Shown here in pieces: positions 30,938 to 63,853 of a DNA stretch of 64,000 nt (its first letter is position 1; each line of letters opens with the position of its first letter). This DNA comes from Nitrospinaceae bacterium (GTDB lineage Bacteria; Nitrospinota; Nitrospinia; Nitrospinales; VA-1). The stretch covers positions 88,117 to 152,116 of the forward strand of contig BQJC01000004.1 in the NCBI GenBank assembly GCA_021604505.1, given 5' to 3'. The notes under the pieces were generated by a model that saw only the letters and a list, made by a program, of their open reading frames with translations, did not search any database and had not been told where the DNA came from. Position numbers and translations under genes: made by a program.

Positions 30938-31015
30938 CGGGACGTAGCGCAGCCTGGTTAGCGTACTTGACTGGGGGTCAAGTGGTCGGAGGTTCAAATC
31001 CTCTCGTCCCGACCA
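30938..31015 (+). tRNA. tRNA-Pro (anticodon GGG), CCA encoded
   Basis: Manual fold. Acceptor CGGGACG/CGTCCCG; D arm GCGC-AGCCTGGTTA-GCGT; anticodon arm CTTGA-CTGGGGG-TCAAG; variable loop TGGTC; T arm GGAGG-TTCAAAT-CCTCT; discriminator A plus CCA. Confidence 0.9.
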
Positions 31016-31096: not shown

Positions 31097-31867
31097 CTAC
31101 AAGGTTTTTTCAAACAAATTGAGCCCCGTTTTAAAAGCTTCCCGCAGTTGGCTCAATCGTCTGGGGTCTACTGTTAAGCTTTTTGGGTCGAACCAGGGGT
31201 TGGAGAGATATAATTTTCGATTCATTTCAATTTGAATCCAGGGTACCGGATCGTTTCCGTATTTTCTGGTGATATACCCCCCCGCGAAAGGCTCGTTGAT
31301 CGTCACGTCCCCTGCTTTTAAGTGAAAACCTTCCTGAAGGCATTCAGCTAATTTTTGCACCCACTCATCGGAACAACTTTTTCCATAATTATTTCCCAGG
31401 CAAATAAGAGGACGCTCTTTCCCACTATCGGGAGCGATGGGAGGGCCAACAGGCTCCATGGTATGACAATCCAGGCCTAATTTGATCCCGGAATGGGTGT
31501 TCAACAACTCCCGGATTTTTTTGTGGTAAGGGTCGTGGTATTTTTGAATCAGTTCCTCACCGATTGTTTCGTCGAGCAACAACCCAGGAGAATAGATCGG
31601 CTGGCCATGGCAGGTTTTGGTTTTGACAATGCCGTCCGGGTTTTTGGGAGGCCGGTCTGAAGTTTCACGGTTCAAATCGACAAACGCTCTGGCGATGTCC
31701 GTTTCGATAAAAGCCTGAACTTCATCGCGGATCCCGTAGATCTCCCGGGTGAAGGCATCCCCATCCTCAAACAAATCCTTCTGCGTGATACAAACCCGAT
31801 CGGAAATTTCTTGGGGAGTTTTTGTTCCCCCATGGGGAATAGAGATCAGAAATGGAAGTTTAGCCAT
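31097..31867 (-). CDS. N-formylglutamate amidohydrolase family protein
   Basis: ISIPHGGTKTP near the N-terminus, plus GLDCHTM and PWIQIEMNR motifs of the FGase family. 256 aa. Confidence 0.75.
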   Translation of the reverse strand: MAKLPFLISIPHGGTKTPQEISDRVCITQKDLFEDGDAFTREIYGIRDEVQAFIETDIARAFVDLNRETSDRPPKNPDGIVKTKTCHGQPIYSPGLLLDETIGEELIQKYHDPYHKKIRELLNTHSGIKLGLDCHTMEPVGPPIAPDSGKERPLICLGNNYGKSCSDEWVQKLAECLQEGFHLKAGDVTINEPFAGGYITRKYGNDPVPWIQIEMNRKLYLSNPWFDPKSLTVDPRRLSQLREAFKTGLNLFEKTL

Positions 31868-31870
31868 TAT

Positions 31871-37338: not shown

Positions 37339-40300
37339 TCAACAAGGGTTGGGAACGTATTCCATATGCAGAAGAGGCGCGGCGCTGGGAACCCCGTTGA
37401 AAGATTCAGCGGCTCGTTCTCCGGTTCCACTGATAATGACCGCCAGCGAATTGCCGCTCACCCATCCCGGCAGGTTAATGATTTCCTGAATGACGGAAGC
37501 GATATCCGGAGTTCGCTGATCCAACCCGGCTTCTCCCACCGAAGTCCACGAAGGAACCCCAGGCCAGCCCACCGAGGCTCCCGTCAGCGGCCGGTCGGTG
37601 ATGTTGTTGCTTGCACTGGTAAACGTCGCGGCGTTGGCCGCAGCCTGCCCGCGCACCGTGAGCGACGTGGTCCCGGAATGGCTTTCATCCGCCTGAAACT
37701 GAACATAGGCATTGGTGATCGTCGAACAACCGGGGACACTCACCCCGTTAAAGCGCAGGCCAATGGTCTGGTTGTCTCCGGCATCAAAGGTCATTTCGAG
37801 ATCGGAGCTGGTCAGCGACATACTTCCCGAGGCCCGTTCTTCCGCATCGTCCGTACTCGATGAAACACGGATGTCGAGAATCGTAGAAGCTGAAGGTGGA
37901 CCCGTGGAGACAACGATTTTGACACTGCTGCCTGCCGCAGCACTGGCTCCGCCTATCGGATTCTGGCTGATCACATCTCCCGCAGAAACCGTAGCGCTGC
38001 TCTGCGTTGAAACCGTTCCAACATCCAGTCCCGCACCGACAATCGCCGCTTCCGCAGCAGCTTGCGTCAGACCCACAACGTCAGGGACCGACACCAATAC
38101 CGGTGGCGTGCTTGAAAATTCCACATACAATAAAGGTGCGGCGCCGGGAACCCCGTTGAAGGATTCAGCAACCCGCTCTCCGGTCCCGCTGATAATGACC
38201 GCCAGCGAATTGCCACTCACCCATCCCGGCAGGTTGATGATTTCCTGAATGACCGATGCTATATCCGGTGTCCGCTGATTTGGCCCGGCTTCTCCCACCG
38301 AATTCCATGCAGGAACAGAAGGCCAGGCCACCGACGCTCCCGTTAACGACCGGTCGGTGATGTTGTTGGTTTCACTGGTAAACGTCGCGGCGTTGGCCGC
38401 CGCCTGCCCGCGAACCGTGAGCGACGTGGACCCGGAATGGCTTTCATCCGCCTGAAACTGAACATAGGCTTTGGTGATCGTTGCACCTGCGGGAATATTC
38501 ACCCCGTTAAAGCGCATACCGATGGTCTGGTCGCCTCCGGCATCAAAGGTCAGCTCGAGATCGGAGCTGGTCAGCGACATATCCCCAGAGGCCCGTTCTT
38601 CCGCATCGTCCGAACCCGATGCAACCCGAATATCGAGAACCGTTGTCCCCGAACTCTCGGTCACAGTGATGCTCAACTCGTCGAAGACAGTGAACTCGCC
38701 GTCAAAGGCAGTCAGGCGCAAAACGTAGGTCCCCGGCAAATTGAAACTGACGGTCGTGTCTTCCGCATTGGCGTTGGCAAAGGTCGCCGTTCCGCCCGCA
38801 GGCCCGCTTTCCTGATTCCAGGTAATCGTCGGAGTCGCCTGCACCAGGCCGTCGTCGGTGACCGTTCCATTCAGTGTCGCACTTGCCGGAAGAACAATCG
38901 ACTGGTCCGGACCGGCGTTGACCGTGGGGGGAGTGTTGGACGGCGGGGTGACAACCTCCACGGTGATCGTGTCCTGTCCCGGCAGGCCGCCGCTGTCCGT
39001 CACTGAAGCGGTGATGGTGTGTATTCCTGTCGATAACCCAGCCGTTGCAAAGGAAACCGCCTGCACTCCACCGTTGAGAACCCCATCCAGGTTGGAAGTC
39101 CACGTGAGATTCGACGACAGGTTACCGTCCTCAAAATCATTGGCCGTGCCGCTGAAAGTGATGCTGGCCCCCGCGTTGAAAGTCAAACCGTCCGCTGGTG
39201 CGTTGATCCCCACCGTGGGGGGCTGGTTGCCCTGACTGGAACCGTATTCCACATGCAGAAGAGGCGCGGCGCTCGGAACCCCGTTGAAAGATTCAGCGGC
39301 TCGCTCTCCGGCCCCGCTGATAATGACCGCCAACGAATTGCCACTCGCCCATCCCGGCAGGTTGATGATTTCCTGAATGACCGATGCTATATCCGGAGTC
39401 CGCTGATCGACACCTGCTTCTCCCACCGAATTCCATGCAGGAACCCCAGGCCAGGCCACCGACGCTCCTGTCAGGGGCCGGTCGGTGATGTTGTTGGTTT
39501 CACTGGTAAACGTCGCGGCGTTCGCCGCAGCCTGCCCGCGCACCGTCAGCGACGTGGACCCGGAATGGCTTTCATCCGCCTGGAACTGAACATAGGCTTT
39601 GGTGATCGTTGCGCCTGCGGGAATATTCACCCCGTTAAAGCGCATGCCGATGGTCTGATCGCCTCCGGCATCAAAGGTCAGCTCGAGATCGGAGCTGGTC
39701 AAAGACAGATCCCCTGAGGACCGTTCTTCCGCATCGTCCGAACCCGATGCAACCCGAATATCGAGCACATCCTGGCTGGGACTTTCAGTTGCCGTGATGC
39801 TCAACTCGTCAAAGATAGTGAACTCGCCGTCGAAGGCAGTCAGGCGTAAAACGTAGGTCCCCGGCAAATTGAAACTGACGGTCGTGTCTTCCGCATTGGC
39901 GTTGGCAAAGCTCGCCGTTCCACCTGCAGGACCGCTTTCCTGATTCCAGGTAATCGCCGGAGTCGCCTGCACCAGGCCGTCGTCGGTGACCGTTCCATTC
40001 AGCGTCGCACCCGCCGGAAGAACAATCGACTGGTCCGGACCGGCGTTGACCGTTGGCGGAGCATTGACCGCGACGGCGGGGTTGACGGTGACGGTCAACT
40101 CATCGAAAGCCGTCAACTCGCCATCAAACGCGGTCAATCGGAGGACATACGTACCAGCTTCGGAGAAACTGACGGTCGTGTCCTCAGCATTGAAATTGGC
40201 AAAGGTAGCCGTTCCACCCGCAGGCCCGCTCTGCTGGCTCCAGGTAATCGTCGGAGTTGTCTGTATCTGGCCGTCGTCGGTAACGGTTCCATCTAAAATT

Positions 40301-43300
40301 GCGTTAGCCGGAAGGGTGATCGTCTGGTCAGGCCCTGCGTCTGGCACCGGAGCACTATTGGCATTGCCACCAATATTACACGTGTCTGAACCTGTATCCG
40401 TAAATTCAAACCCCGCCTCAGGAAGGAATTCCCAATCATAGCCATTGTCTCTTAATGTTAATTTGATAATACCCAGTGAGGAATTGTATTTAACCTCGCT
40501 ATTGGGGATTGGATTGTCAAAATTGTAAAGGGATCTCCCGCCGGTACCGACGACAAAGGCCCGGATGCCGTTCGGGTCAAGATTGCTGTTTGAATCCTGT
40601 TTCGCAAACCGCTCGTAAGTATGATCGTGACCTGCAATAACAATATCCGCCCCGGCGATGTATAGTTCTTGCCAAAATTCAATCGTTCGCGTTGAACTTC
40701 CATGACGTCCTGAGCTGTAGTACGGACGGTGCCAATAAGCAAGAATGCAGGATCCGGAATGCGCCGCTAGATCTTGTTTCAACCACTCCACTTGTGCGGA
40801 ACCCGCCTCAAAATCAACTTCCGAATCGAGTGAAATGATGTGCCAGTTTCCGAGGTCGTAGCTGTAAAAAAGTTGTTGTGTATTTCCAGGAAAGACGCAA
40901 TCATTGGCTGTAGGACAGAAATAATCCAGATAATCCGCCGCACCTGCAACCCCGTAGTCATGGTTGCCGGGCGAGGGAAAGGTTCGCGAACGGTGTCTGC
41001 CCCACGTCGGGTCGTATTTCTGCAGAAAATCAGCTGCTGTGCCGTTGTCATAGGCATTGTCCCCTGCAGTGAATACAATGGCGCCAGGATCATTGGCAAC
41101 CACGTTATCGATGATTTGTGCGGTTGCCTCGGGCCCCCCTGTTATGGAACCATCATCGGCAATATCCCCCGCGCCGACCAGCGTATAAGAAGTAATTTGA
41201 CCGGGATCAAGCGTTGTCGCGCTTGCGGGAAGACTTGCTTCTGAAAGATTATTCGAACTATCCCGTGCAACAACTTCATACGTATAACTCGTAATCGTCG
41301 AAAGGTCCGTATCAAGAAACGAAGTTGCCGATGTTGAACCTATAAATGCGCTGGGCGTGCAACCGAAACCTTGACAGCGAAACACATCGTATCCAGCAAC
41401 CGCAATGTTGTCCGTTGAAGCACTCCATGTAAGGTTGATGCGGGAGGATAAAACACCCGTTCCCGTTAACCCCGTGGGAACGGAGGGGGGTTCTGAATCA
41501 GTCACTGCTAAAAATTCCACATGCAATAAAGGTGCGGCGCCGGGAACCCCGTTGAAGGATTCAGCCGCTCGCTCCCCGGTCCCGCTGATAATGACCGCCA
41601 GAGAATTGCCACTCGCCCATCCCGGCAGGTTGATGATTTCCTGAATGACCGATGCTATATCCGGAGTCCGCTGATTTGGCCCGGCTTCTCCCACCGAATT
41701 CCATGCAGGAACCCCAGGCCAGGCCACCGACGCTCCCGTTAACGACCGGTCGGTGATGTTGTTGGTTTGACTGGTAAACGTCGCGGCGTTGGTCGCAGCC
41801 TGCCCGCGAACCGTGAGCGACGTGGACCCGGAATGGCTTTCATCCGCCTGAAACTGAACATAGGCTTTGGTGATCGTTGCGCCTGCGGGAATATTCACCC
41901 CGTTAAAGCGCATGCCGATGGTCTGGTCACCTCCGGCATCAAAGGTCAGCTCGAGATCGGAGCTGGTCAGTGACATATCCCCTGAGGCCCGTTCTTCCGC
42001 ATCGTCCGAACCCGATGCAACCCGAATATCGAGCACATCCTGGCTGGGACTTTCAGTTAAAGTGATGCTCAAATCGTCGAAGACAGAGAACTCGCCATCG
42101 AAGGCAGTCAGGCGCAAAACGTAGGTCCCCGGCAAATTGAAACTGACGGTCGTGTCTTCCGCATTGGCGTTGGCAAAGGTCGCCGTTCCACCCGCAGGCC
42201 CGCTTTCCAAATTCCAGGTAATCGTCGGAGTCGCCTGCACCAGACCGTCGTCGGTGACCGTTCCATTCAGCGTCGCACCCGCCGGAAGAACAATCGACTG
42301 GTCCGGACCGGCGTTGACCGTGGGGGGAGTGTTGACTGGCGGCGGACCAGAACTTTGGCTAAAAAAGATGAAGGCCGAGCCGGAATCGTTTTCGCCGTTG
42401 TTATCGTCTTGATAAGCTCCCACGATGACATCGTCGATGCCGTCGCCATTGTAATCGCCTGCTGACGATATAGAAAAACCAAACGAATCATTTTCGTTCT
42501 GACCATTCAAAATCACGTCCGAATCTGCGTCGGCCCTTAATGTCAACTGAGCTCCAGCGGGGTTGCGGCCGAAAAAGATGAAAGCGCTGCCAGAGTTACA
42601 AAGTTCGCTTAGGCAATCCGGGTTGTTATCATCGGAAGGTACTCCGACGATAACGTCGCCTAATCCGTCGCCGTTGAAGTCACCCGCCAATGACACCCTA
42701 GAACCAAAGTTGTTCTGTGCGTTCTGTCCATTGAGGATCACATCCGCGTCAGCATCCGCTCGTAAAAACAACTGAACACCTTCCGGATCACGGCCGAAAA
42801 AAATAAAGGCACTACCGGAATTGATTTTACCGTTATTATCGTCATTATGAGCGCCAACGATAATATCATCTACACCGTCGCCGTTGAAGTCGCCCGCTGA
42901 GGACACTGAAGACCCGAAAAAGTCATCTGTACTCTGGCCCCACAAGATCATGTTCGCGTGGCTATTCGCCCCTAGGGTCAATTGTCCAACCGGTTGGCGG
43001 CCGAAAAAGATAAAGGCGCTGCCAGATTGAGTTTGGCCGTTATTACTGGCAAAAGCGGCTCCGACGATGACGTCGTCCTTTCCATCGCCATTGAAATCAC
43101 CCGCCGGGGATACAGATCCGCCAAACCTACCTAATAGATTTTGACCATTGATGATCACATCGACATCGGCATCCGCACTTAAAGTCAACTGAACACCCGC
43201 ACCCGGATCACGGCCCAAAAATATGGAGGCACTCCCGTTATTAGCTAACCCGATACTATCGTCCAATGGAACTCCGACGATGACATCACTCTTGCCGTCA

Positions 43301-46170
43301 CCATTGAAGTCCCCAGTTGAGGAGAACACACCACCAAATCGACCACCTGCAGTTTGGCCATTCAAGATCACGTCCGCATCCGCATCGGCCACTAATGTCA
43401 ACTGAACGCCCCCTGTGCTACGGCCGAAAAAGATGAACGCACTGCCAGAGTCACAAAATTCGTTTGTACAATCCGGGCTGTTATCATCATTTGATGCCCC
43501 TACCATGACGTCGTCTTTGCCGTCACCATTGAAGTCCCCCACAAACGAAACTGTTAGACCAAACAAATCATTTGCACTCTGGCCACTTAGGATCACATCG
43601 GCATCGGCCTCTGATCTTAGCCCAAGCTGAACGCCAACGAGGTTGCGGCCAAAAAATATGAAGGCGCTATTCGATAAATTGGAACCGACGATTATATCGT
43701 CAATGCCATCGCCATTAAAATCCCCGGCCGATGACACGGAATTACCAAATCGATCCCCTGCGTTTTGACCATCGAGGATGACATTGGCGTCACTATCCAC
43801 CGTTAGAATGGGCGATGTCTTAACCGTAACTGTTTGGGTTGCCGTTCCGGTATTGCCCGAAGAGTCCGTTGCCGAATACGTCACTATGGTAACGCCAGCT
43901 GGGAAACCACCTGCAGGGGCATCGTTGATTGGTATGATCGTTCCATCCACCCCGTCAATGGCGGTGACTGTGCCCAAGGCAACTGGTGTCAATGTCCCCG
44001 TCGCAGCCACCACTAAATCTGGAAGATAGACAGTAACCTCTGGCAGGGTGGTATCGACAATCGTAATGGTTTGCGTGGCTGTTGAGGAATTACCCCTCTC
44101 ATCGGTGGCGGTCCAGATAACCGGGGTAACACCCACCGGGAACTGGATATAGCCTATCCGGTGGGGGGGTGGCGCATTGTTGGTGATAGTAATATCAGCC
44201 GGTGCACTCACATTATCAGTTGCCGTTGCTTGACCAATAAACACACCCGTCTGTATACCGGTTGCCTCAACCGTTAAATCCGCAGGAACCGTTATTACAG
44301 GAGGTATAGAATCAATTTCAAGACCATCAATAACTGTAATGGCCGGAACGGCCTGCACCAATCCATAACCCGTGGCAAAATCGACACCGGTGTCAAACCC
44401 TGCAGTTCCAGGATCATCCATATCGATGGCAGTCGATTCCAGAGCCAAATAAATTTCTGCTGGAAATAATCCAGGTTTATTTTGAAACAACAAAGCGGCA
44501 AGCCCCGCGACGTGAGGAGCGGCGGCGGAGGTCCCGAAAAAATCCGGGAACCCGTCTCCATTACTGTCGGGACTGCCAAAAAAAGTGGTGCTGCCACCAT
44601 CCGGGCCGACAATATTCGGTTTGAATCGAATTTCAGGCGAAGCCAATGGGTTCCCTGCGAGGTCGAACAGAATAGGGACGCCGCCGATAGAGGAAAACGC
44701 TTCCAATTGCGGCGGGTTGACTCCAAACTCCGGGGTATTGATAAAATTTGCCGCTCCTACCGCTTCCGCTCCCAAGGCGTTGGCGTGCCCGTAGGAAGTG
44801 GGGCTCGCTGTATTAAACTGATTGACCGTTGAGTTGCCGAACTGGACATATTTGATTTTACCGGGATTCGCTCCCCCACCATTGGTGATGACAATATTGA
44901 AAGTCTGCGTGGCTCCCGTGTTTTGAAAAAACAGGACTTCTACCGGGTCCAGACCAATATTAGCTTCCGCACTGGCCGCAACCACCGTAGTGGCAGCGGC
45001 ATTGGCCAGGTAGATATCCACATCGTTGGGAGAACCGGCCCCACCCGCCGAGGCCGCCGGAGAGTCCCATTGCAGGGCAATCAAAAGGGTTCCCCCGCCC
45101 GGAATCGTCACCTGCTGAAATATATCCACCCCGCCGCCCGGATCAAAATCGTGGACCTCAAAAACTTCCGGGCCGATGGTGATCGTCTGCCCTCCCCGGA
45201 ACACATCCTCATAGCTGTTCCGGGATTGGTTCCCCGCCGCTGAAAAATACGCAACTCCCGTTCCATTCACCTGATCGACGGCCTGGGCGATGATTCCGTC
45301 TTGAAACATCGGTTCGGCAAAATAAATGATGTCATCGACAATAACTTGCGCACCGGCATTGGCGAGGTCAATAATGCCTTGCGCAAAGTTGGCCTGACCA
45401 TTGAAGGCTGTGTGAAAAGCCAGCGAAGCGCCCGGCGCTACGTCATGCACGATCTGCAGCATGCCCCGGCCTTCGTCGATACTGCTAGCACATGAGGCGG
45501 TGTCATCCAGAACGGTCACACCTCCCGCAGGAAGGTCCCCGGATGAAATGTCCCCCGCCGCCCCGCCGAGGCAATCGTAACTATCCGAAAGAACCCCGAC
45601 CGTCACGCCCGACCCATCCACGCCGAAAGTCGTGCGCGCAATATCTGCCCGCATGGAAAGGTCCCCCTGACTGGTCACCGACCCTGCGTTGGTGGCCGCC
45701 ATGGACGGACGCGCAAAAGTCAGATAATGGCATTGCGGTAGTTGATCGACTGCCGAAATGGGTAAGAGGCCTGAGACCATCTTTCCAAAAATTCCGGCAT
45801 TTTTAAGGCCGATTCCTTCCAACTCCTCTTTCAAGTCGTTTGGATCCGAAACGGCGATGGCATCGATCACCACATAGCTATCAGACACCTTGACCATGGA
45901 GTTTTGCGGCCTGAATTTCCCTTTGAAGCTGAAGGACTTGTTCTTTCTAAAGGACTGGAAGTCTTCGTAAACCTCTCGCAAATGTTTTCCGACCTTGGGT
46001 CTTATCGATGGTCTTGACTTTATATCTTTTTGAGAGATTTCGAGGCGGGTTTGCGGGTCGTTTTCCCTTTTACTGTTATCGGCATGAACGGACAGGGAGG
46101 GCAGAATCGTTAAAAATAAAGCCAGTATTAAAACAGTCAGCCCGGTTTTTGAATTTCTGCCGATTCTCAC
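37339..46170 (-). CDS. Giant secreted multidomain protein (2,943 aa). Order: signal, prodomain, S8 subtilase, 2x HYR, 7x FG-GAP, PKD+X, FN3, metallophosphoesterase, PKD', PKD+X, Ig-like, PKD+X, PASTA, X
   Basis: One uninterrupted 8.8-kb ORF. The motifs are listed in the domain features below. All plus-strand ORFs inside it are antisense shadows. Confidence 0.85.
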   Translation of the reverse strand: MRIGRNSKTGLTVLILALFLTILPSLSVHADNSKRENDPQTRLEISQKDIKSRPSIRPKVGKHLREVYEDFQSFRKNKSFSFKGKFRPQNSMVKVSDSYVVIDAIAVSDPNDLKEELEGIGLKNAGIFGKMVSGLLPISAVDQLPQCHYLTFARPSMAATNAGSVTSQGDLSMRADIARTTFGVDGSGVTVGVLSDSYDCLGGAAGDISSGDLPAGGVTVLDDTASCASSIDEGRGMLQIVHDVAPGASLAFHTAFNGQANFAQGIIDLANAGAQVIVDDIIYFAEPMFQDGIIAQAVDQVNGTGVAYFSAAGNQSRNSYEDVFRGGQTITIGPEVFEVHDFDPGGGVDIFQQVTIPGGGTLLIALQWDSPAASAGGAGSPNDVDIYLANAAATTVVAASAEANIGLDPVEVLFFQNTGATQTFNIVITNGGGANPGKIKYVQFGNSTVNQFNTASPTSYGHANALGAEAVGAANFINTPEFGVNPPQLEAFSSIGGVPILFDLAGNPLASPEIRFKPNIVGPDGGSTTFFGSPDSNGDGFPDFFGTSAAAPHVAGLAALLFQNKPGLFPAEIYLALESTAIDMDDPGTAGFDTGVDFATGYGLVQAVPAITVIDGLEIDSIPPVITVPADLTVEATGIQTGVFIGQATATDNVSAPADITITNNAPPPHRIGYIQFPVGVTPVIWTATDERGNSSTATQTITIVDTTLPEVTVYLPDLVVAATGTLTPVALGTVTAIDGVDGTIIPINDAPAGGFPAGVTIVTYSATDSSGNTGTATQTVTVKTSPILTVDSDANVILDGQNAGDRFGNSVSSAGDFNGDGIDDIIVGSNLSNSAFIFFGRNLVGVQLGLRSEADADVILSGQSANDLFGLTVSFVGDFNGDGKDDVMVGASNDDNSPDCTNEFCDSGSAFIFFGRSTGGVQLTLVADADADVILNGQTAGGRFGGVFSSTGDFNGDGKSDVIVGVPLDDSIGLANNGSASIFLGRDPGAGVQLTLSADADVDVIINGQNLLGRFGGSVSPAGDFNGDGKDDVIVGAAFASNNGQTQSGSAFIFFGRQPVGQLTLGANSHANMILWGQSTDDFFGSSVSSAGDFNGDGVDDIIVGAHNDDNNGKINSGSAFIFFGRDPEGVQLFLRADADADVILNGQNAQNNFGSRVSLAGDFNGDGLGDVIVGVPSDDNNPDCLSELCNSGSAFIFFGRNPAGAQLTLRADADSDVILNGQNENDSFGFSISSAGDYNGDGIDDVIVGAYQDDNNGENDSGSAFIFFSQSSGPPPVNTPPTVNAGPDQSIVLPAGATLNGTVTDDGLVQATPTITWNLESGPAGGTATFANANAEDTTVSFNLPGTYVLRLTAFDGEFSVFDDLSITLTESPSQDVLDIRVASGSDDAEERASGDMSLTSSDLELTFDAGGDQTIGMRFNGVNIPAGATITKAYVQFQADESHSGSTSLTVRGQAATNAATFTSQTNNITDRSLTGASVAWPGVPAWNSVGEAGPNQRTPDIASVIQEIINLPGWASGNSLAVIISGTGERAAESFNGVPGAAPLLHVEFLAVTDSEPPSVPTGLTGTGVLSSRINLTWSASTDNIAVAGYDVFRCQGFGCTPSAFIGSTSATSFLDTDLSTITSYTYEVVARDSSNNLSEASLPASATTLDPGQITSYTLVGAGDIADDGSITGGPEATAQIIDNVVANDPGAIVFTAGDNAYDNGTAADFLQKYDPTWGRHRSRTFPSPGNHDYGVAGAADYLDYFCPTANDCVFPGNTQQLFYSYDLGNWHIISLDSEVDFEAGSAQVEWLKQDLAAHSGSCILAYWHRPYYSSGRHGSSTRTIEFWQELYIAGADIVIAGHDHTYERFAKQDSNSNLDPNGIRAFVVGTGGRSLYNFDNPIPNSEVKYNSSLGIIKLTLRDNGYDWEFLPEAGFEFTDTGSDTCNIGGNANSAPVPDAGPDQTITLPANAILDGTVTDDGQIQTTPTITWSQQSGPAGGTATFANFNAEDTTVSFSEAGTYVLRLTAFDGELTAFDELTVTVNPAVAVNAPPTVNAGPDQSIVLPAGATLNGTVTDDGLVQATPAITWNQESGPAGGTASFANANAEDTTVSFNLPGTYVLRLTAFDGEFTIFDELSITATESPSQDVLDIRVASGSDDAEERSSGDLSLTSSDLELTFDAGGDQTIGMRFNGVNIPAGATITKAYVQFQADESHSGSTSLTVRGQAAANAATFTSETNNITDRPLTGASVAWPGVPAWNSVGEAGVDQRTPDIASVIQEIINLPGWASGNSLAVIISGAGERAAESFNGVPSAAPLLHVEYGSSQGNQPPTVGINAPADGLTFNAGASITFSGTANDFEDGNLSSNLTWTSNLDGVLNGGVQAVSFATAGLSTGIHTITASVTDSGGLPGQDTITVEVVTPPSNTPPTVNAGPDQSIVLPASATLNGTVTDDGLVQATPTITWNQESGPAGGTATFANANAEDTTVSFNLPGTYVLRLTAFDGEFTVFDELSITVTESSGTTVLDIRVASGSDDAEERASGDMSLTSSDLELTFDAGGDQTIGMRFNGVNIPAGATITKAYVQFQADESHSGSTSLTVRGQAAANAATFTSETNNITDRSLTGASVAWPSVPAWNSVGEAGPNQRTPDIASVIQEIINLPGWVSGNSLAVIISGTGERVAESFNGVPGAAPLLYVEFSSTPPVLVSVPDVVGLTQAAAEAAIVGAGLDVGTVSTQSSATVSAGDVISQNPIGGASAAAGSSVKIVVSTGPPSASTILDIRVSSSTDDAEERASGSMSLTSSDLEMTFDAGDNQTIGLRFNGVSVPGCSTITNAYVQFQADESHSGTTSLTVRGQAAANAATFTSASNNITDRPLTGASVGWPGVPSWTSVGEAGLDQRTPDIASVIQEIINLPGWVSGNSLAVIISGTGERAAESFNGVPSAAPLLHMEYVPNPC
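37357..37881 (-). repeat. Fourth, more divergent X-domain copy (D) at the C-terminus, with no PKD partner
   Basis: ILDIRVSSSTDDAEERASGSMSLTSSDLEMTFDAG...LLHMEY. About 87% aa identity to copies A-C by eye. Confidence 0.8.
37900..38091 (-). other. PASTA-like domain of the giant protein
   Basis: VPDVVGLTQAAAEAAIVGAGLDVGTVSTQSSATVSAGDVISQNPIGGASAAAGSSVKIVVSTG matches the PASTA pattern (PDVVG.....A...L...GL......V........G.V..Q.P..G......V.L..S.G). Confidence 0.65.
38116..38934 (-). repeat. Intragenic 819-bp repeat unit C (PKD-like plus X domain)
   Basis: Same length and frame as units A and B. Ends LLYVEF. Confidence 0.85.
39244..40062 (-). repeat. Intragenic 819-bp repeat unit B (PKD-like plus X domain)
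   Basis: Same length and frame as unit A. A diverged extra PKD-like module lies at 40063-40350. Confidence 0.85.
40426..41193 (-). other. Calcineurin-like metallophosphoesterase domain of the giant protein
   Basis: All signature motifs are present: GAGDIAD, AGDNAYDNG, PGNHDY, YWHRP and GHDHTYERF. Confidence 0.8.
41512..42330 (-). repeat. Intragenic 819-bp repeat unit A (PKD-like 98 aa plus X domain 175 aa)
   Basis: Encodes TPPTVNAGPDQSIVLPAGATLNGTVTDDGL... followed by VLDIRVASGSDDAEER...LLHVEF. Roughly 95% DNA identity to units B and C over the stretches I compared by eye. Confidence 0.85.
42355..43803 (-). other. Seven FG-GAP repeats (integrin-alpha-like beta-propeller) in the giant protein
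   Basis: Seven units FG..V...GD(F/Y)NGDG.DD(V/I)(I/M)VG...SGSAFIFFGR. Units 2 and 6 carry an extra Cys pair (NSPDCTNEFC and NNPDCLSELC). Confidence 0.8.
44341..45633 (-). other. Subtilisin-like (S8) peptidase domain of the giant protein
   Basis: Putative triad D196 (GVTVGVLSDS), H242 (EGRGMLQIVHDVAPGA) and S548 (GTSAAAPHVAGLAALL). Oxyanion Asn in SAAGNQ. Confidence 0.8.
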
Positions 46171-57805: not shown

Positions 57806-58130
57806 ATTCCGGCAAGGAATTATCCTTCCAGGGAAGCCTCACGATCAAAAACCGCTCAGACCCATTGTCAATCAAATAACCTCAGCAAAACAAATGGATT
57901 ACCGTTTTTCCCGGTCTTGAAAAAGGCGAACGTCGCCTAAGGAGTGCAACATCCGATTGGTCTTAAAAGTGTCTATCCGGTAACCGGAAAAACCCTCAAT
58001 AGAAATAAAAAATCGCTGAAGAAAAAGGTTTTCAACTCAGTATTTTGCGAGGCGCCATTTCGATCAAAGACTTTTACCAAGGGCCTTCAAAACAAAGGAG
58101 TTTTACCTCATCAGGGAATCAATAAATAAG

Positions 58131-58160
58131 TTGACATAAATTAAACTCTGCCTTTATACT
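58131..58160 (+). promoter_or_regulatory. Candidate sigma70-type promoter for the nuoE-G-D genes
   Basis: TTGACA (58131-58136), an 18-nt spacer, then TATACT (58155-58160). This would give a leader of about 140 nt before the ATG at 58304. Confidence 0.45.
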
Positions 58161-58303
58161 TCCCCCTCCACCCCGTAGTTCGTGGAAGCGCGGCAGAAAA
58201 ATAAACTCAAACCTCATGAAGACAGGGTTTTTAATTTATCAGTTTAACCCCGAAAGTCTTTTATAATAGATACCAATATTTTCTTATAAAAGAGTGATCC
58301 TTT

Positions 58304-58870
58304 ATGGAAACCAACGATACGGCACTAGCAACCGACACCAGCCCGGAAGAAGAAGAACAACCGGTAGATCTGACTGCAGGGAAAGAAATTATCGGCAAAA
58401 TTCCGGACACTCCCAATAATAGACGGTATCTCATCCCCACTCTGCAGAAAATCCAGGATGCCTACCGTTATCTGCCCGATCCGGTGATCCGGCTCCTGAT
58501 GGCCAAATTGCGCATTGCCCGGGCCGAAATTTTCGGAGTGATCTCGTTTTATCCCGGACTCATGATTGAAGAGCCCGGCAAATACATCATCAAACTGTGT
58601 TATGGAACGGCCTGCTTTGTTAAAGGGGCCGAGATCATCGCCAACAAAATCCAGGAAAAGTATCATATTGGTCCCGGAGAAACCGACAAGAGCAAATTAT
58701 TCACCATGCAAACCGCCTCCTGCCTCGGCAACTGCGGCGCCGCTCCCATGGCCATCATCGGGGAGGACACCCACGGAACCATCGATCCTGAAAAAACACT
58801 GCCAATGCTGGCTTGCTACAAACTGGAGGAGGACGCACCAGCGGAGACCGAGGAGATAACGTCTGAATGA
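58304..58870 (+). CDS. nuoE: NuoE/HoxE-type thioredoxin-like [2Fe-2S] subunit
   Basis: CYGTAC...CLGNCGAAP cysteine pattern. Acidic N- and C-terminal extensions. Confidence 0.8.
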   Translation: METNDTALATDTSPEEEEQPVDLTAGKEIIGKIPDTPNNRRYLIPTLQKIQDAYRYLPDPVIRLLMAKLRIARAEIFGVISFYPGLMIEEPGKYIIKLCYGTACFVKGAEIIANKIQEKYHIGPGETDKSKLFTMQTASCLGNCGAAPMAIIGEDTHGTIDPEKTLPMLACYKLEEDAPAETEEITSE

Positions 58871-61497
58871 GCACCGTCGTCAAGAAAACCATAAATCTGA
58901 AAATTGATGGCAAGGAGGTCACCGCACCGGAAGGCACCGTGATTCTGGAAGCCGCAAAGCAACACGGTTTCGAGGTGACCAACCTCTGCTACAACAGAAA
59001 ACTGAAGCCCTTTGCGGCCTGCCGCACCTGTATGGTAGAAACGGTCACCGACGGCGAGAAGGAATTGGTGTATTCCTGCACCCATCCCGTGGCCGAAGGC
59101 ATGGAGGTGAAAACCAACACCGAGGAAACCGACCGCTACAACAAAGCCTGCCTGGAAATGCTTTTAGTGGAGCATCCCCTGGACTGTCCGATTTGCGACA
59201 AGTCCGGAGTCTGCCCTCTGCAAGACAACACCGATGCTCTCAAGCTCTACAACGGCCGCTTTGAGATCAACCGCAGGAACGAACCCAGTATCAAGAGCAA
59301 CCCCATCATCGAATTTTATTTGAACCGTTGCATCATGTGCGGATTGTGCGTACGCGCGTGTGATGAAACGCAAGGGGTGCAGGCCCTGGATTTCCACAAA
59401 CGCGGCATGAGCGTCGGCATCGGCACCGCCAACGACGAACCGCTCGATTGCGAGTTCTGCGGGCAGTGCATCACCGTCTGCCCGACAGGCGCCCTCATGG
59501 ACATGACTTCCGAAGCGCGAGGTCTGGCCGCCATGTTCACCAACACCCACACCACTTGCAACTACTGTTCGTGGGGATGCACGTTTCGACTGCAAACCAA
59601 AAAAGGTGAGGTTCTGCGCATTGAGGGAGACGAAGGTTACAACGTCGGCATCAACGAAGGCAATCTCTGTGCTAAAGGCCGGTTCGGGCATGGCATCATC
59701 CACAACGAAGACAGAATCAAATCCCCATTGATGAATTACGGCGGCGAATTTAAAGAGATCAGCTGGGACGAAGCCATTCAAACCATCGCCGAACGAATGC
59801 AAACCACCGTCAACCGAAGCGGCCCTGGGAGTATTGCGGGGATTGGGTCTGAAAAAATGACCAACGAGGAAGCCTACCTGTTCCAGAAGCTCTTTCGCAA
59901 TCAATTCGGCTCCAATCAGATCACCAATCTGGCTAATCTCAGAGCGCCTTACGTCAACCAGTTCATGCTGGACTGCTTCAAAGGCGGCATCGAATCCAAA
60001 CCCGTCACCGAACTTGAGCATGCTGATGTGGTCCTGATTTTCAATTCGGATCTTCCATCCGAATACCCGGTGGGCGGCAACTCCATCCGTAAAGGTGTCG
60101 TGTTTACCGGAACAGATATCATCATCGCCAACCCCAGAGACGTGGTATTCAACAACGAAGCCCAATGCGATATCCGTATGACCTTCAGCCACGGCGCGGA
60201 TCTGGCCGTTATCAGCCGGTTGACCCGGATCATCCTCGACGAGAAACTCATCGACCTGGATAAAGCCAAAGCCGCTGTTCCCAATTTTGACGACCTGGTC
60301 AAATCCTTGAAGCCCTATAGCGCCAAGGATGCAGAAAAAATGACCGGCTTAAAGGATGACATTCTCACTCAGGCGGCCAAACGATTTGCCAGAGAAGCGG
60401 ACCGATTCGTCATTCTCGGCAATGATATTCTAGACACCGGCCAGGGGGAAGATATCCTGAAAGCCCTGCTCAACCTGTCTCTTCTGGTCCATTATGGAGG
60501 GGAAGGCAGCATCAGCATCTATCCGCCCAGGGAGCACTGCAATTCCCAGGGTGTGAACGACATGGGCGTGACACCGGCGTTTCTCCCCGGATATCAACCG
60601 GCTCAGGACCCAGCGGCGTTAGAAGCGTTGTCAAAAACCTGGGAAAGAGAACCATTGAAACCCACAGAAGAGAACCTGGCGGAAGATCTTTTCACCAATT
60701 GCGCCAATGGCAAAACCAAACTGTTGTACATCGCTGGTGAAGACCCGATACAGTCCTACTACAAAGCGGCGCTTGTGAAAGACGCACTGCAAACCGTTCC
60801 GTTCCTTGTTGTCCAGGACGTGTTCATGACCGAAACCGCCAAAATGGCCGACATCGTTCTTCCCACCTCGACGTTTGCGGAAAAAGACGGGACCTTCACC
60901 AATATGACGCGCCATGTCCAACAGGTGAAAGCGGCGACCCTGCCGCAGGGAATGTCGAAACCGGATTTCGATATCTTCTGTGAAATCGCGGACGCTTTGG
61001 ACAAACCGTTCACTCAAAATTCCGTTGAAGAGGTGCAGGAAGAAATCGAACGCACCGTCTCCTTTTATAGTGGAACGATGCCGGGAGATGAGTCCAGGCA
61101 ATGGCCCGCTTCAGGGTTCGCGGACAAACCGGAATTTAAAATTCCTCAGGCTTATCAGGGTGCGGCTTCCAAAGATGGATTCCCATTTCGCCTGCAAACC
61201 AACAATCACATGTTCCATATTGGCAGTTACACCCAGCACGCAAAAGCGCTGGTCGAGGTAGGACCTGAGTGTTACGCCGAAATACACCCCGAAGATGCCG
61301 AATCCCTGAACCTTCAAGAGGGAGACCGCATCGTCGTTGAATCGCAAAATGCTAAAGTGGAAGTGCCCGTGAAAGCAAGCTACGTGACCGCAAAAGGCAT
61401 GGTTTACATCCCGCAAAACTGGGTGGATGTGCCCGTACACCAGTTAAGGAACGGGGAAGAAGGTCTGATCTCCATCAAAGTTTCCAAAGCAGATTGA
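58867..61497 (+). CDS. nuoG: NuoG-like / formate-dehydrogenase-alpha-like Fe-S molybdopterin-fold subunit
   Basis: N-terminal 2Fe-2S (CYNRKLKPFAACRTC), His-ligated cluster HPLDCPICDKSGVCPLQ, 4Fe-4S motifs CIMCGLCVRAC and CEFCGQCITVCP, MopB cluster CNYCSWGC, then a long molybdopterin-oxidoreductase fold. 4-nt overlap with nuoE. Confidence 0.75.
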   Translation: MSTVVKKTINLKIDGKEVTAPEGTVILEAAKQHGFEVTNLCYNRKLKPFAACRTCMVETVTDGEKELVYSCTHPVAEGMEVKTNTEETDRYNKACLEMLLVEHPLDCPICDKSGVCPLQDNTDALKLYNGRFEINRRNEPSIKSNPIIEFYLNRCIMCGLCVRACDETQGVQALDFHKRGMSVGIGTANDEPLDCEFCGQCITVCPTGALMDMTSEARGLAAMFTNTHTTCNYCSWGCTFRLQTKKGEVLRIEGDEGYNVGINEGNLCAKGRFGHGIIHNEDRIKSPLMNYGGEFKEISWDEAIQTIAERMQTTVNRSGPGSIAGIGSEKMTNEEAYLFQKLFRNQFGSNQITNLANLRAPYVNQFMLDCFKGGIESKPVTELEHADVVLIFNSDLPSEYPVGGNSIRKGVVFTGTDIIIANPRDVVFNNEAQCDIRMTFSHGADLAVISRLTRIILDEKLIDLDKAKAAVPNFDDLVKSLKPYSAKDAEKMTGLKDDILTQAAKRFAREADRFVILGNDILDTGQGEDILKALLNLSLLVHYGGEGSISIYPPREHCNSQGVNDMGVTPAFLPGYQPAQDPAALEALSKTWEREPLKPTEENLAEDLFTNCANGKTKLLYIAGEDPIQSYYKAALVKDALQTVPFLVVQDVFMTETAKMADIVLPTSTFAEKDGTFTNMTRHVQQVKAATLPQGMSKPDFDIFCEIADALDKPFTQNSVEEVQEEIERTVSFYSGTMPGDESRQWPASGFADKPEFKIPQAYQGAASKDGFPFRLQTNNHMFHIGSYTQHAKALVEVGPECYAEIHPEDAESLNLQEGDRIVVESQNAKVEVPVKASYVTAKGMVYIPQNWVDVPVHQLRNGEEGLISIKVSKAD

Positions 61498-61544
61498 GTT
61501 TCCCGGAACATTTTTTTATCGAGTAATTAAAAAAAAGACCGCTC

Positions 61545-62735
61545 ATGGCCGATTTAAAAGAACAACTGCATACCGATCACATGGTCCTCAACATGGGGCC
61601 GTCTCACCCCGCCACCCACGGAACCGTCAAGTTTCTGCTGACCCTGGACGGGGAAACGGTGGTAAACATGGATGTTGAGATCGGTTACCTGCATCGCGGG
61701 TTTGAAAAAATGTGCGAGAGCGTGACCTATTCCAACGTTTTCCCCTACACCGATCGGCTGAATTATTGCTCGGCCATCATGAACAACGTAGGCTTTGCGA
61801 TCGCGGTGGAAAAACTTTGCGGCATCGAAGCCACGGACCGTTGCAATTACATTCGTATGGTGACGAACGAACTGGCCCGCATCTCGGACCACTACACCAA
61901 TATCGCCGCCGCCGCTCTGGAGTTGGGCGCATTGACGGCGTTTATTTATTTTGTGGAAGCGCGGGAAATCGTTTGGGATCTTCTGGAAAAAGTATGCGGC
62001 GCCCGGTTAACGTCCAATTACATCCGCATCGGCGGGCTGATGTGCGACCTGCCTCCCGGATTCGACGAAGATTTGCAGACGTCCTACAAAAAACTGGATT
62101 CCCTGTTCGACGACGTGGATAAATTGCTCACCAAAAACCGGATCTTCCTCGACCGCATGCGGGACACAGGCGCCATTTCGGCGGAAGATGCGATCAACTG
62201 GGGGTTCACCGGTCCCTGCCTGCGGGCCTGCGGGGTGGATTACGATGTCCGCAAACAGCACCCCTACATGGGTTATGACCGTATCGATTTTGACATTCCC
62301 CTGGGAACCACCGGCGACAATTTCGACCGCTATCTTGTCCGCATGGAAGAAATCAAGCAAAGCTTTCGGATCATCAAACAAGCCATGAAGGACATGCCCG
62401 ACGGCCCCATCAACGTGGCCAACCCTTATATGCGGACACCGGCGAAACCCGATGTTTATTCCCGCATGGAAGAAATGATCGCCCACTTTAAGATGATCAT
62501 CGACGGGTTGAAACCGCCTGTCGGCGAAGTGTACTTTCCTTCGGAAGCAGCCAATGGAGAACTGGGGTTTTATCTGGTGAGCGATGGAACGGGAAAACCC
62601 TACAAATGCAGAGTCCGCCCCCCCAGCTTCACAATGACCGGGGCCATGGAAACGCTTTGCAAAGGCGGTATGCTCGCTGACATCATTCCCACATTTGACA
62701 TGATCAATATGATCGGCGGGGAATGCGATCGTTGA
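61545..62735 (+). CDS. nuoD: NADH-quinone oxidoreductase subunit D homolog
   Basis: MVLNMGPSHPATHGTVKF, IGYLHRGFEKM, and the C-terminal MINMIGGECDR typical of NuoD/49-kDa subunits. Confidence 0.85.
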   Translation: MADLKEQLHTDHMVLNMGPSHPATHGTVKFLLTLDGETVVNMDVEIGYLHRGFEKMCESVTYSNVFPYTDRLNYCSAIMNNVGFAIAVEKLCGIEATDRCNYIRMVTNELARISDHYTNIAAAALELGALTAFIYFVEAREIVWDLLEKVCGARLTSNYIRIGGLMCDLPPGFDEDLQTSYKKLDSLFDDVDKLLTKNRIFLDRMRDTGAISAEDAINWGFTGPCLRACGVDYDVRKQHPYMGYDRIDFDIPLGTTGDNFDRYLVRMEEIKQSFRIIKQAMKDMPDGPINVANPYMRTPAKPDVYSRMEEMIAHFKMIIDGLKPPVGEVYFPSEAANGELGFYLVSDGTGKPYKCRVRPPSFTMTGAMETLCKGGMLADIIPTFDMINMIGGECDR

Positions 62736-62851
62736 CCTTATCCCGCCTTTCTCGAAAATGCCCTCCATACTTCACAAAAAATAATCGTCGGTTAGAATCG
62801 TATTTTCGGACGTAATCTTTTTTAAACCATTTAACCCGCCCGCCTTCGCCA

Positions 62852-63853
62852 ATGGCAAAGTTTTTAAAGGTTGCCTTTCTTTTAGCCGGTCTCGCACTAT
62901 TCGCATGGTCGCTAAAGTTTGTCGATATGACCCGCGTGCTCTCCCTGCTTTGGGACATAGGATTTGGTTTTGTCCTCATCATGCTGGTCTACGCCCTGGT
63001 CACCTACATCGATACCCTGGCCTGGCGATACACTTTCAAACCTGAACAGGCCCGCAGATTCAGTTCACTGCAACTATGGAGAATACGCCAGATCGGCGAA
63101 GCCTACAATGTCATCACACCTTTCGGAACGGTGGGAGGCGAACCCGTCAAAGCCCAGCTCCTAAAGGATTATCACCATTTGACTTTCAAGCAGGGCTTGG
63201 CCTCGTTAGTCATCACCCGGACAACCCTGCTCACCGGGCTCATTATATTTTTCATCCCCGGGGTTTACATGATTCAAACCTCACAAGTCGTGTCCGGGGA
63301 ATTTAAAAGCGTCAGCCTCGCCGGAATGATCGTGTTCTCCACATTGATCTTCCTGTTCTTTTTATTTCAAATCACCGGGACATTGGGAGTATTGGCGTCC
63401 TGGGCGGACCGGCTGTTTACCAGGAAAAAAGAGGACGGTTTTCTCAGTCATTTACAGGTGTTAAATACCCTGATGTCAAAATATTACAAAGAGCATCAGG
63501 GAAGAGTTTATCTATCCATCCTGTACGCATTGATTGGCTGGGTGGTGGGGTTGGCTGAGCTTTATCTCGCCTTGTATCTTCTTGGCTACAATCCCAGTTT
63601 TCAGGAATTATGGATCATTGAAGCATTGGTCCAACTCATTCGGGTGGGGTCATTTTTTATCCCCATGAGCCTGGGAGCCCAGGAAGGAGGAATGATTCTT
63701 ATCTTTGTCGCCATGGGAATGACGGCGGATTTGGGCCTGACCGTGTCTTTCGTTCGCCGGGTCAAGGAACTGATATGGGTTTCAGCGGGCTTGCTCCTGG
63801 GTTGGAGCCTGGCCTTCAAACCCGCCAAAGTCCAACCCGACACACAAAGCTGA
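62852..63853 (+). CDS. Flippase-like / lysylphosphatidylglycerol-synthase TM-domain family membrane protein (UPF0104-like)
   Basis: 333 aa with about 8 TM helices. The GTVGGEPVKAQLLK motif resembles that family. Confidence 0.55.
   Translation: MAKFLKVAFLLAGLALFAWSLKFVDMTRVLSLLWDIGFGFVLIMLVYALVTYIDTLAWRYTFKPEQARRFSSLQLWRIRQIGEAYNVITPFGTVGGEPVKAQLLKDYHHLTFKQGLASLVITRTTLLTGLIIFFIPGVYMIQTSQVVSGEFKSVSLAGMIVFSTLIFLFFLFQITGTLGVLASWADRLFTRKKEDGFLSHLQVLNTLMSKYYKEHQGRVYLSILYALIGWVVGLAELYLALYLLGYNPSFQELWIIEALVQLIRVGSFFIPMSLGAQEGGMILIFVAMGMTADLGLTVSFVRRVKELIWVSAGLLLGWSLAFKPAKVQPDTQS

Follow-up and report, generated by a model that had tools for sequence, protein, structure and literature searches.

The nuoE-nuoG-nuoD trio of a Nitrospinaceae genome belongs to the scattered second complex I gene set of Nitrospinia and encodes a NuoG subunit without the molybdenum ligand

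What would a NuoE-type, a NuoG-type and a NuoD-type subunit of complex I do when their genes stand together, apart from every other complex I gene? This arrangement occurs in a 64,000-nt stretch of Nitrospinaceae DNA (positions 88,117 to 152,116 of contig BQJC01000004.1, assembly GCA_021604505.1), which was analysed over its whole length and is hereafter called the window. The three genes are referred to here as nuoE2, nuoG2 and nuoD2 (coordinates in Table 1). They had been labelled an orphan trio in the initial annotation, and that label is wrong: the trio is the published nuoEGD cluster of NUO-2, the second and scattered set of complex I genes of the class Nitrospinia, and is therefore already known. 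Our analysis adds its class-wide arrangement, its promoter, the selection acting on it, the missing molybdenum (Mo) ligand of NuoG2, the affinity of NuoE2 and NuoG2 to Bfu-type subunits, and the mosaic ancestry of the set.

The NUO-2 of Nitrospina gracilis 3/211 consists of nuoEGD, a nuoACHIJKLMN cluster without B and D, and solitary nuoB2 and nuoF2 genes (Lücker et al. 2013, PMC3578206). Its nuoE, nuoG and nuoD (NITGRv1_810025-27) encode proteins of 186, 877 and 396 aa (Table S1, Lücker et al. 2013, PMC3578206), compared with 188, 876 and 396 aa in the window. The cluster nuoN-M-L-K-J-I-H-C-A carries the tags NITGRv1_590040-48, and because these are consecutive (in the seven entries of Table S1, PMC3578206, available to us) there is no room in it for B or D. 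The likeness between the N. gracilis nuoEGD and the window trio covers the E-G-D order, the near-equal lengths, the extra [4Fe-4S] motif of NuoG2, the class and the isolation from other nuo genes; there was no substantial difference, and the window represents another species of the same class. Documented partner loci thus replace the presumed orphan status. N. gracilis also has a canonical complex I, NUO-1, whose single operon includes D, B, E, F and G (PMC3578206). Across Nitrospinia the second nuo set is complete, and most of the remaining Nitrospinota classes lack it (Kop et al. 2024, PMC10839748). The gene order is therefore the published norm of a whole class, as the initial annotation had allowed it might be, but its function is hypothesised: the role of NUO-2 in supplying reduced ferredoxin for CO2 fixation is a proposal from the literature.

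At the level of the individual genes, the first description held up well. All three open reading frames (ORFs) were recovered at the positions expected, co-oriented on the + strand, with a 4-nt overlap between the first two and a 47-nt gap between nuoG2 and nuoD2. Domain matches bore out a NuoE-type 2Fe-2S protein and an 876-aa NuoG/FdhA-like protein, and curated-model scores a bona fide NuoD. When the remaining longest non-nested ORFs of 150 aa or more were scanned with Pfam, no further nuo, hox, fdh or mbh gene was detected in the 64-kb window, in line with the stated lack of nuoF, nuoB, nuoC, nuoI and the membrane subunits; the other ORFs scanned included cobalamin, thiamine, efflux, chemotaxis, two-component and transport genes.

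A frame for these proteins is the predicted Nuo-Bfu, a 14-subunit complex I in which NuoEFG is replaced by BfuABC (Schut et al. 2022, PMC9304861). NuoG2 contains the Pfam domains Fer2_4, NADH-G_4Fe-4S_3, Fer4_Nqo3, Molybdop_Fe4S4, Molybdopterin and Molydop_binding. It scored below the curated cut-off for NuoG (TIGR01973, 399.5 vs 470.05 bits; far below the cut-offs of other NuoG models) and below that for the alpha subunit of formate dehydrogenase (TIGR01591, 438 vs 666.25 bits). Its best PDB matches were FdsA chains (9wxb_B, 5e-113; 6tg9_A, 1e-110) over residues 9-849, and solved complex I NuoG chains aligned with the N-terminal half alone (~7-430). The sequence contains ligand motifs for five clusters, one [2Fe-2S] and four [4Fe-4S], corresponding to A1-A5 of BfuA: the [2Fe-2S] ligands C41/52/55/71, then H103-C107-C110-C116, two full CxxCxxCxxxC motifs at residues 155-165 and 195-205, and C231/234/238/268 followed by a Lys. 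In complex I terms, NuoG2 holds the N1b, N5, N4 and N7 ligand motifs and a second complete CxxCxxCxxxC, that is, one [4Fe-4S] beyond canonical NuoG. This extra motif has already been published for the NuoG2 of N. gracilis (Lücker et al. 2013, PMC3578206).

The molybdopterin half of NuoG2 is degenerate at the metal site. A Mo-ligand Cys or Sec, which the initial annotation had proposed to look for, is absent; in place of Cys386-His387 of Rhodobacter capsulatus FdsA, NuoG2 has Arg359-Ala360. HMMER alignments to 6tg9_A and 9wxb_B set 'laNLRApy' opposite 'caRVCHsp'. The same replacement was evident in a MAFFT alignment of 151 sequences (the window NuoG2 and its 150 best representatives from a library of 1.84 billion proteins), in which canonical formate dehydrogenase representatives have CAR[LV]CH and PLRGQNNVQG, and the window NuoG2, P0121, P0123 and P0124 have LAN[LI]RAPY and PREH[CN]NSQG. 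The latter three were the only close NuoG2 relatives in the set, and P0124 is an anammox representative. The equivalent of Arg587 (R555) and the Lys after the fourth Cys (the electron-transfer Lys) are retained, and an occupied pterin pocket is possible. Because the metal-ligand Cys/Sec and the catalytic His are replaced by Arg-Ala, NuoG2 is predicted to be an electron wire and scaffold built on an FdsA chassis and not a formate dehydrogenase; a catalytic formate dehydrogenase was rejected on both the active-site residues and the curated score.

All four cluster ligands of NuoE2 (C99, C104, C140 and C144) are present. NuoE2 scored below the cut-offs of all NuoE, FdsG and HoxE NCBIfam models, and its best solved relatives were the C subunits of HydABC, NfnABC and NiFe-HydABCSL (8a6t_C, 1.6e-29; 7t2r_C; 9n5u_C; 89-106 bits), HydABC/NfnABC-type structures that we take to be electron-bifurcating. 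Complex I NuoE and FdsG scored lower (55-75 bits; ~1e-19 for complex I NuoE). To our knowledge, there is no diagnostic motif separating BfuC from NuoE.

NuoD2 exceeded the NCBIfam cut-offs of TIGR01962 (492.5 bits, cut-off 459.35) and NF004739 (478 bits, cut-off 360), and aligned over its whole length with the 49-kDa subunits of solved complex I structures (up to 1e-107). It retains the quinone-site His25 (in HPATHG, residues 21-26) and Tyr74 (in DRLNY, 70-74), equivalent to His38 and Tyr87 of Nqo4, and has Glu126 at the position of Thermus Nqo4 Asp139, a conservative change. In T. thermophilus Nqo4 these residues are numbered His38, Tyr87 and Asp139, and Asp139 is the partner of the quinone-site His. 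Glu occupied this position in all sampled Nitrospinia NuoD2 and in Nitrospinota-type NuoD, and Asp in all sampled anammox and deltaproteobacterial NuoD; the change may be related to the quinone used. Nothing in NuoD2 suggests a role outside the quinone (Q) module of complex I, and it would be expected to sit in a membrane complex, since its quinone-site His and Tyr make sense only beside NuoB and NuoH.

We assessed how widely this arrangement is kept. An exact-sequence lookup of the window NuoD returned no record, and genomic context was taken from relatives at 94-95% identity. The best NuoD matches, at 85-95% identity, were named Nitrospinae, Nitrospina, Nitrospinaceae or Nitrospinales, and all of the best NuoD and NuoG matches (70-95% identity) carried Nitrospinia-type names. 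Seven related loci (L001, L002, L168-L171 and L173; their NuoG proteins are 70-87% identical to the window NuoG) shared one gene order: HDOD protein, lipoprotein, ammonium transporter (Amt), tetratricopeptide repeat (TPR) protein (~760 aa), nuoE, nuoG, nuoD, HpnL-like protein and, on the opposite strand, tatA. No other nuo gene occurred within 7-10 kb on either side in these seven loci (downstream in L173, the contig ends ~3 kb past nuoD). Missing subunits lying just past the window end, as parts of a split but standard operon, were therefore rejected. Against closer relatives, the ratio of nonsynonymous to synonymous substitution rates (dN/dS) was ~0.07 for nuoE, ~0.07 for nuoG and ~0.03 for nuoD (overall range 0.03-0.08), with dS near 1. 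Synonymous change was near or beyond saturation. The trio is under strong purifying selection.

The stretch immediately upstream had been described as about 500 bp of non-coding DNA. This holds in that the 498-bp leader contains no listed + strand ORF of at least 80 aa (its first 100 bp are overlapped by two short ORFs on the minus strand that come from within the TPR gene) and gave no match in an Rfam scan, but it does contain a conserved promoter. This sigma-70-type promoter, TTGACA-18 nt-TATACT, agrees with the consensus at 11 of 12 positions, and an A/T-rich AATAAATA block precedes its -35 hexamer. In the composite AATAAATA-R-GTTGACA...TATACTTC, the hexamers and the AATAAATA block were invariant in all six aligned Nitrospinia loci; in the same six loci the 18-nt spacer varies, the flanks diverge and NuoG identity is merely 70-87%. 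The block is searchable as AATAAATARGTTGACA...TATACT. About 35 nt upstream of the -35 hexamer lies a second motif, GGGCCTTCAAAACAAAGG, which was near-identical in the window, L001 and L002, had one mismatch in L169 and was recognisable in the alignment of the more distant L171 and L173; it is a possible regulator binding site. Given its synteny, its dN/dS values and its conserved promoter, the trio is a transcription unit in its own right, conserved and under selection.

The NuoG2 family is a narrow one: identities are at least 70% within Nitrospinia, and the next group, outside the class and at 39-42%, consists of anammox bacteria (Jettenia, Brocadia, Scalindua, Anammoxibacter and Loosdrechtia). 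The anammox orthologs sit in complete colinear nuoABCDEFGHIJKLMN operons (L003, L004). Bfu genes in the middle of a single nuo operon were found in anammox L003, L004 and L085-L087; in Nitrospinia the genes are scattered. The NuoF of the anammox operons (597-616 aa in L003 and L004) could be matched along its entire length to NfnABC and HydABC B subunits (9n5u_B, 9e-225; 7t2r_B; 7q4v_B; 8a6t_B), and Nqo1 in the core only (5e-123). It is a full-length BfuB homolog with the flavin-site loop GLRGRGGGGFPTGEKW, and the BfuB structures with which it aligns contain flavin mononucleotide (FMN). In the two extended NuoF genes (L003 8154-10004 and L004 7155-8948) the loop reads GLRGRGGGGF(P/D)TGxKW, and the sole notable change is CGEET to CGEST. 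The anammox nuoA-N operons with a HydB/BfuB-type NuoF are the Nuo-Bfu class predicted by Schut et al. 2022, reported from a Planctomycetes/'Nitrospirae' clade and a Deferribacteres/Proteobacteria clade (PMC9304861). The loop and the alignment disagree with a remark made in 2013, that the enzyme of Kuenenia seems to have no FMN site, and we question the generality of that published remark.

The NuoD and NuoG phylogenies that the initial annotation had suggested pointed in two directions. In neighbour-joining trees of the sampled loci (without support values, and with a sampling biased by how the loci were fetched), NuoG2 was sister to anammox NuoG and shared 31-34% identity with other Nitrospinota NuoG, and NuoD2 grouped with Nitrospinota-type NuoD (61-70% identity; L023, L024, L088-L096 and L098), with 45-49% identity to anammox NuoD. 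The Glu-for-Asp signature in NuoD splits the same way. Together these are an indication that the set may be mosaic, with a Nitrospinota-type NuoD2 and anammox-type NuoE2 and NuoG2.

Several features of the sampled operons were recorded alongside. Loci L023, L024 (2913-12550) and L088-L096, from Nitrospinota apparently outside Nitrospinia, have the operon nuoF(extended)-nuoG-nuoA-B-C-D-H-I-J-K with no nuoE adjoining; among the sampled sequences their NuoD is closest to NuoD2 (61-66%) and their NuoG is unrelated to NuoG2 (31-34%). In marine anammox-type (Scalindua-like) operons, nuoE and nuoG are separated by two extended NuoF/BfuB genes in tandem, the first encoding 608 aa and the second 625-633 aa (L085 8001-11673, L086 8001-11725, L087 4049-7773), and we found no mention of a duplicated NuoF/BfuB subunit in the literature examined. 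A 94-aa Desulfoferrodoxin_N-domain protein is encoded between nuoG and nuoH in Jettenia (L003 12756-13040), and a 317-aa PAS-GAF protein between nuoF and nuoG in L004 (9035-9988).

We consider it probable that the trio is the nuoE2-nuoG2-nuoD2 unit of a scattered NUO-2 that forms an enzyme of the Nuo-Bfu kind and most likely works in reverse, reducing ferredoxin. The gene identities, motifs, Mo-ligand loss, conservation, promoter and co-transcription signals and ortholog operons come from this analysis, and the partner loci from the literature; from these we infer that the subunits assemble, which way the electrons flow and what the substrates are. The trio products would work with partners: NuoD2 would fill the quinone-site gap of the nuoACHIJKLMN cluster encoded elsewhere, and NuoB2 and a ~600-aa NuoF2, likewise encoded elsewhere, would complete the enzyme. 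NuoD2 with NuoB2, NuoC2, NuoH2 and NuoI2 would make up the quinone site, and NuoG2, NuoE2 and NuoF2 a Bfu-type distal module in place of the NADH module. [quoted passage not shown] Of the two functions first suggested for the trio, a supplement to a complex I core encoded elsewhere, serving as an alternative electron-input module, matches the N. gracilis partner loci and the anammox operons. The other, a distinct soluble or peripheral module using a donor such as ferredoxin or formate, fared unevenly: a soluble formate module is disfavoured by the Arg-Ala at the Mo site and by the quinone-site His and Tyr of NuoD, whereas ferredoxin is still the leading idea for the partner substrate.

Several points weigh against this assignment. 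The direction of electron flow is not derivable from sequence, and because the nearest relatives of NuoG2 and NuoD2 differ, shared ancestry gives no signal of co-assembly. The NuoF2 of N. gracilis, with one extra 2Fe-2S and two extra 4Fe-4S clusters, was reported to lack an FMN site (Lücker et al. 2013, PMC3578206); if correct, this excludes Bfu-type flavin chemistry for Nitrospinia. That the partner loci complement the trio is known from a single published genome inventory and a single comparative paper, and Nitrospinia nuoF2, nuoB2 and the D-less cluster were not recovered as sequence. A genome scan seeded with two anammox NuoF reached anammox bacteria, many other phyla and two non-Nitrospinia Nitrospinota (with F-G-A-B-C-D-H operons) and no Nitrospinia nuoF2. 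A protein search that started from this Nitrospinota NuoF led to those lineages again and to operons of marine anammox bacteria. This non-recovery fits the best match listed for N. gracilis NuoF2, a Deferribacter protein at just 46% (Table S1, PMC3578206). A metagenome scan seeded with Nitrospinota NuoH yielded no D-less nuoACHIJKLMN, the readable loci all being intact B-C-D-H or D-E-F-G-H. Our literature search found no biochemical, proteomic or expression data for Nitrospina NUO-2.

A more specific version of the mechanism, which we put forward tentatively and hold to be rather doubtful, is that NUO-2 is a mosaic, dispersed Nuo-Bfu acting as a bifurcating quinol oxidase driven by the proton-motive force, with quinol electrons split between NAD+ and ferredoxin at a flavin/Fe-S site. 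Electron transfer from quinol to ferredoxin (Lücker 2013, PMC3578206) and confurcation by Nuo-Bfu (Schut 2022, PMC9304861) are both published ideas; what would be new is to combine them, along with a chimeric origin from a Nitrospinota-type Q module and an anammox-type N module.

The main functional rival is operation in the forward direction, in which Nuo-Bfu would confurcate NADH and reduced ferredoxin, passing their electrons to quinone with proton pumping, for instance when glycogen is broken down or oxygen is low. Forward operation is the general Nuo-Bfu function predicted by Schut 2022 (PMC9304861), complex I is reversible in principle, and forward electron transport is required when N. 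gracilis draws on the glycogen that it stores (Lücker 2013, PMC3578206); Nitrospinia, however, already own the canonical NUO-1 for NADH oxidation. The second set is found in the nitrite-oxidising class and is mostly absent from the other Nitrospinota classes, which are able to use low-potential donors (Kop 2024, PMC10839748), a distribution that fits the need created by nitrite as a high-potential donor. On balance we regard forward operation as the principal role of NUO-2 as unlikely.

It is considerably less plausible that, by module swapping, NuoE2, NuoG2 and NuoD2 dock on the membrane arm of NUO-1 as an alternative peripheral arm. The NUO-1 operon already contains D, B, E, F and G, and without NuoD2 and its partners the membrane cluster lacking D and B would be useless. 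The hint in favour of docking comes from Kuenenia: the best matches of several NUO-1 subunits (D, H and L) fall in the same operon that holds the best match of NuoG2 (Table S1, PMC3578206), as if an anammox-type N module had first worked with a NUO-1-like core. NuoD2 itself groups with Nitrospinota-type NuoD and shares its Glu-for-Asp change, unlike anammox NuoD.

The FdsA affinity of NuoG2 raises another alternative, namely that NuoE2, NuoG2 and NuoF2 form a soluble dehydrogenase like FdsABG or HydABC, acting on formate or another substrate, with nuoD a neighbour by chance. The best solved relatives of NuoG2, with matches along the full length, do belong to soluble formate dehydrogenases that depend on NAD, pipelines of the Joint Genome Institute (JGI) name some homologs 'formate dehydrogenase (NADP+) alpha subunit', and the Kuenenia complex was once annotated as a formate:quinone oxidoreductase (PMC3578206). 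We nevertheless judge this very improbable, as neither the window NuoG2 nor any of its close relatives, anammox included, has the Mo-ligand Cys/Sec or the catalytic His, the protein falls under the curated formate dehydrogenase cut-off, the E-G-D linkage under one conserved promoter is kept across the class, and the anammox orthologs are embedded between nuoD/E/F and nuoH. Finally, a decaying, functionless remnant of a broken nuo operon, which the separation of the trio from the rest of any nuo operon and the scores of NuoE2 and NuoG2 below every curated family cut-off might suggest, is effectively refuted by the dN/dS of 0.03-0.08 at dS near or beyond saturation, the intact frames, the full set of Fe-S ligands, and the promoter and synteny conserved class-wide.

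The preferred assignment, a scattered NUO-2 of the Nuo-Bfu kind, can be set against several characterised systems. The anammox Nuo-Bfu operons (Jettenia L003 and L004; Kuenenia) likewise combine a BfuA-kind NuoG and a probably BfuC-kind NuoE with ordinary subunits of the Q module and the proton-pumping (P) module. Nuo-Bfu as described is, however, a single colinear 14-gene operon, whereas the Nitrospinia genes are scattered over at least four loci and NuoD2 is not anammox-type. FdsABG of R. capsulatus (6tg9) shares with NuoG2 the five Fe-S motifs and the molybdopterin-fold domains, and its FdsG is homologous to NuoE2; it differs in having Cys386/His387 where NuoG2 has Arg359/Ala360, and nuoG2 is linked to nuoD and not to fdsB, fdsC or fdsD. 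HydABC, NfnABC and NiFe-HydABCSL (8a6t, 7t2r, 9n5u, 7p5h) supply the best solved relatives of NuoE2 with their C subunits, and their B subunits resemble anammox NuoF. In contrast to these, NUO-2 has no hydrogenase or NADPH module, and its third substrate would be quinone or quinol reached via the membrane arm. With respect to canonical complex I (T. thermophilus Nqo, 4hea; Escherichia coli Nuo), NuoD2 is a standard 49-kDa subunit and NuoG2 shares the N1b, N5, N4 and N7 motifs, but NuoG2 has an extra [4Fe-4S] motif and a full FdsA-like C-terminal half, and the trio lies outside a nuoA-N operon. The '2M' complex I of Nitrospira reportedly lacks NuoEFG altogether, whereas NUO-2 keeps a modified E/F/G module. 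For both, the proposed role is to bring electrons to ferredoxin by reverse transport, in support of the rTCA cycle of a nitrite oxidiser. The '2M' form has a second NuoM (Chadwick et al. 2018, as cited in PMC12342949).

Downstream of the trio, the next gene does encode an unrelated membrane protein, as first described. A promoter-like site lies in the 116-nt gap before it and no terminator-like hairpin was detected after nuoD2; transcriptional read-through from nuoD2 into this HpnL-like gene is possible. As a functional partner the HpnL-like neighbour is unsupported, given that synteny spans the whole 15-kb neighbourhood and that the gene has its own promoter-like site.

Table 1. Positions of the trio, its regulatory elements and other features in the window (position 1 is the first nucleotide of the 64,000-nt stretch).
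Feature	Position	Strand	Description
nuoE2	58304-58870	+	188 aa; thioredoxin-like [2Fe-2S] subunit, probably of NuoE/HydC (BfuC) type; PF01257 E=2e-37
nuoG2	58867-61497	+	876 aa; 75-kDa-type Fe-S subunit of FdsA architecture with a degenerate molybdopterin domain
nuoD2	61545-62735	+	396 aa; complex I 49-kDa quinone-site subunit; Complex1_49kDa E=2e-106
nuoE2/nuoG2 overlap	58867-58870		ATGA
Arg359-Ala360 codons of nuoG2	59941-59946	+	Align with Mo-ligand Cys386 and His387 of R. capsulatus FdsA
Glu126 codon of nuoD2	61920-61922		Position of Thermus Nqo4 Asp139
Leader of the trio	57806-58303		Upstream of nuoE2
GGGCCTTCAAAACAAAGG motif	58081-58098	+	Possible regulator binding site
Promoter of the trio	58131-58160	+	Sigma-70-type
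Promoter-like site after nuoD2	62771-62798		TTCACA-16 nt-TAGAAT, 10 of 12 positions
Membrane-protein gene	62852-63853		LPG_synthase_TM/HpnL-like; first gene after nuoD2
2943-aa ORF	37339-46170	-	Probable huge surface or secreted protein
tRNA gene	30938-31012	+	62.6 bits
Three-gene run	31097-35691	-	May be a small peptide or amide metabolism cluster

Elsewhere in the window, the 2943-aa ORF contains subtilase (S8), FG-GAP, HYR, PKD/K319L-like, calcineurin-like phosphoesterase and PASTA domains, and the G+C peak of the window (0.59 at 38-40 kb) coincides with it. The tRNA gene was the sole Rfam match in the window at the gathering threshold. The three-gene run encodes an N-formylglutamate amidohydrolase-like protein, a gamma-glutamyltranspeptidase and a 730-aa protein in which a D-Ala-D-Ala-ligase-type ATP-grasp domain is fused to an M20 peptidase domain.

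How aerobic nitrite oxidisers that use the rTCA cycle to fix CO2 obtain reduced ferredoxin (~-500 mV) from nitrite (+420 mV) bears on a large share of the carbon fixed in the dark ocean. For Nitrospinia, the only candidate that has been named is NUO-2, and the trio encodes three of its peripheral-arm subunits. The question was raised in 2013; the window refines it rather than providing a new handle, in that formate becomes a very unlikely substrate of NuoG2, the N module is tied to structurally characterised Bfu enzymes, and a conserved promoter is added that can be used to look for co-regulation of the dispersed NUO-2 loci. If the tentative bifurcating quinol oxidase were true, both reductants of the rTCA cycle would be supplied from nitrite-derived electrons.

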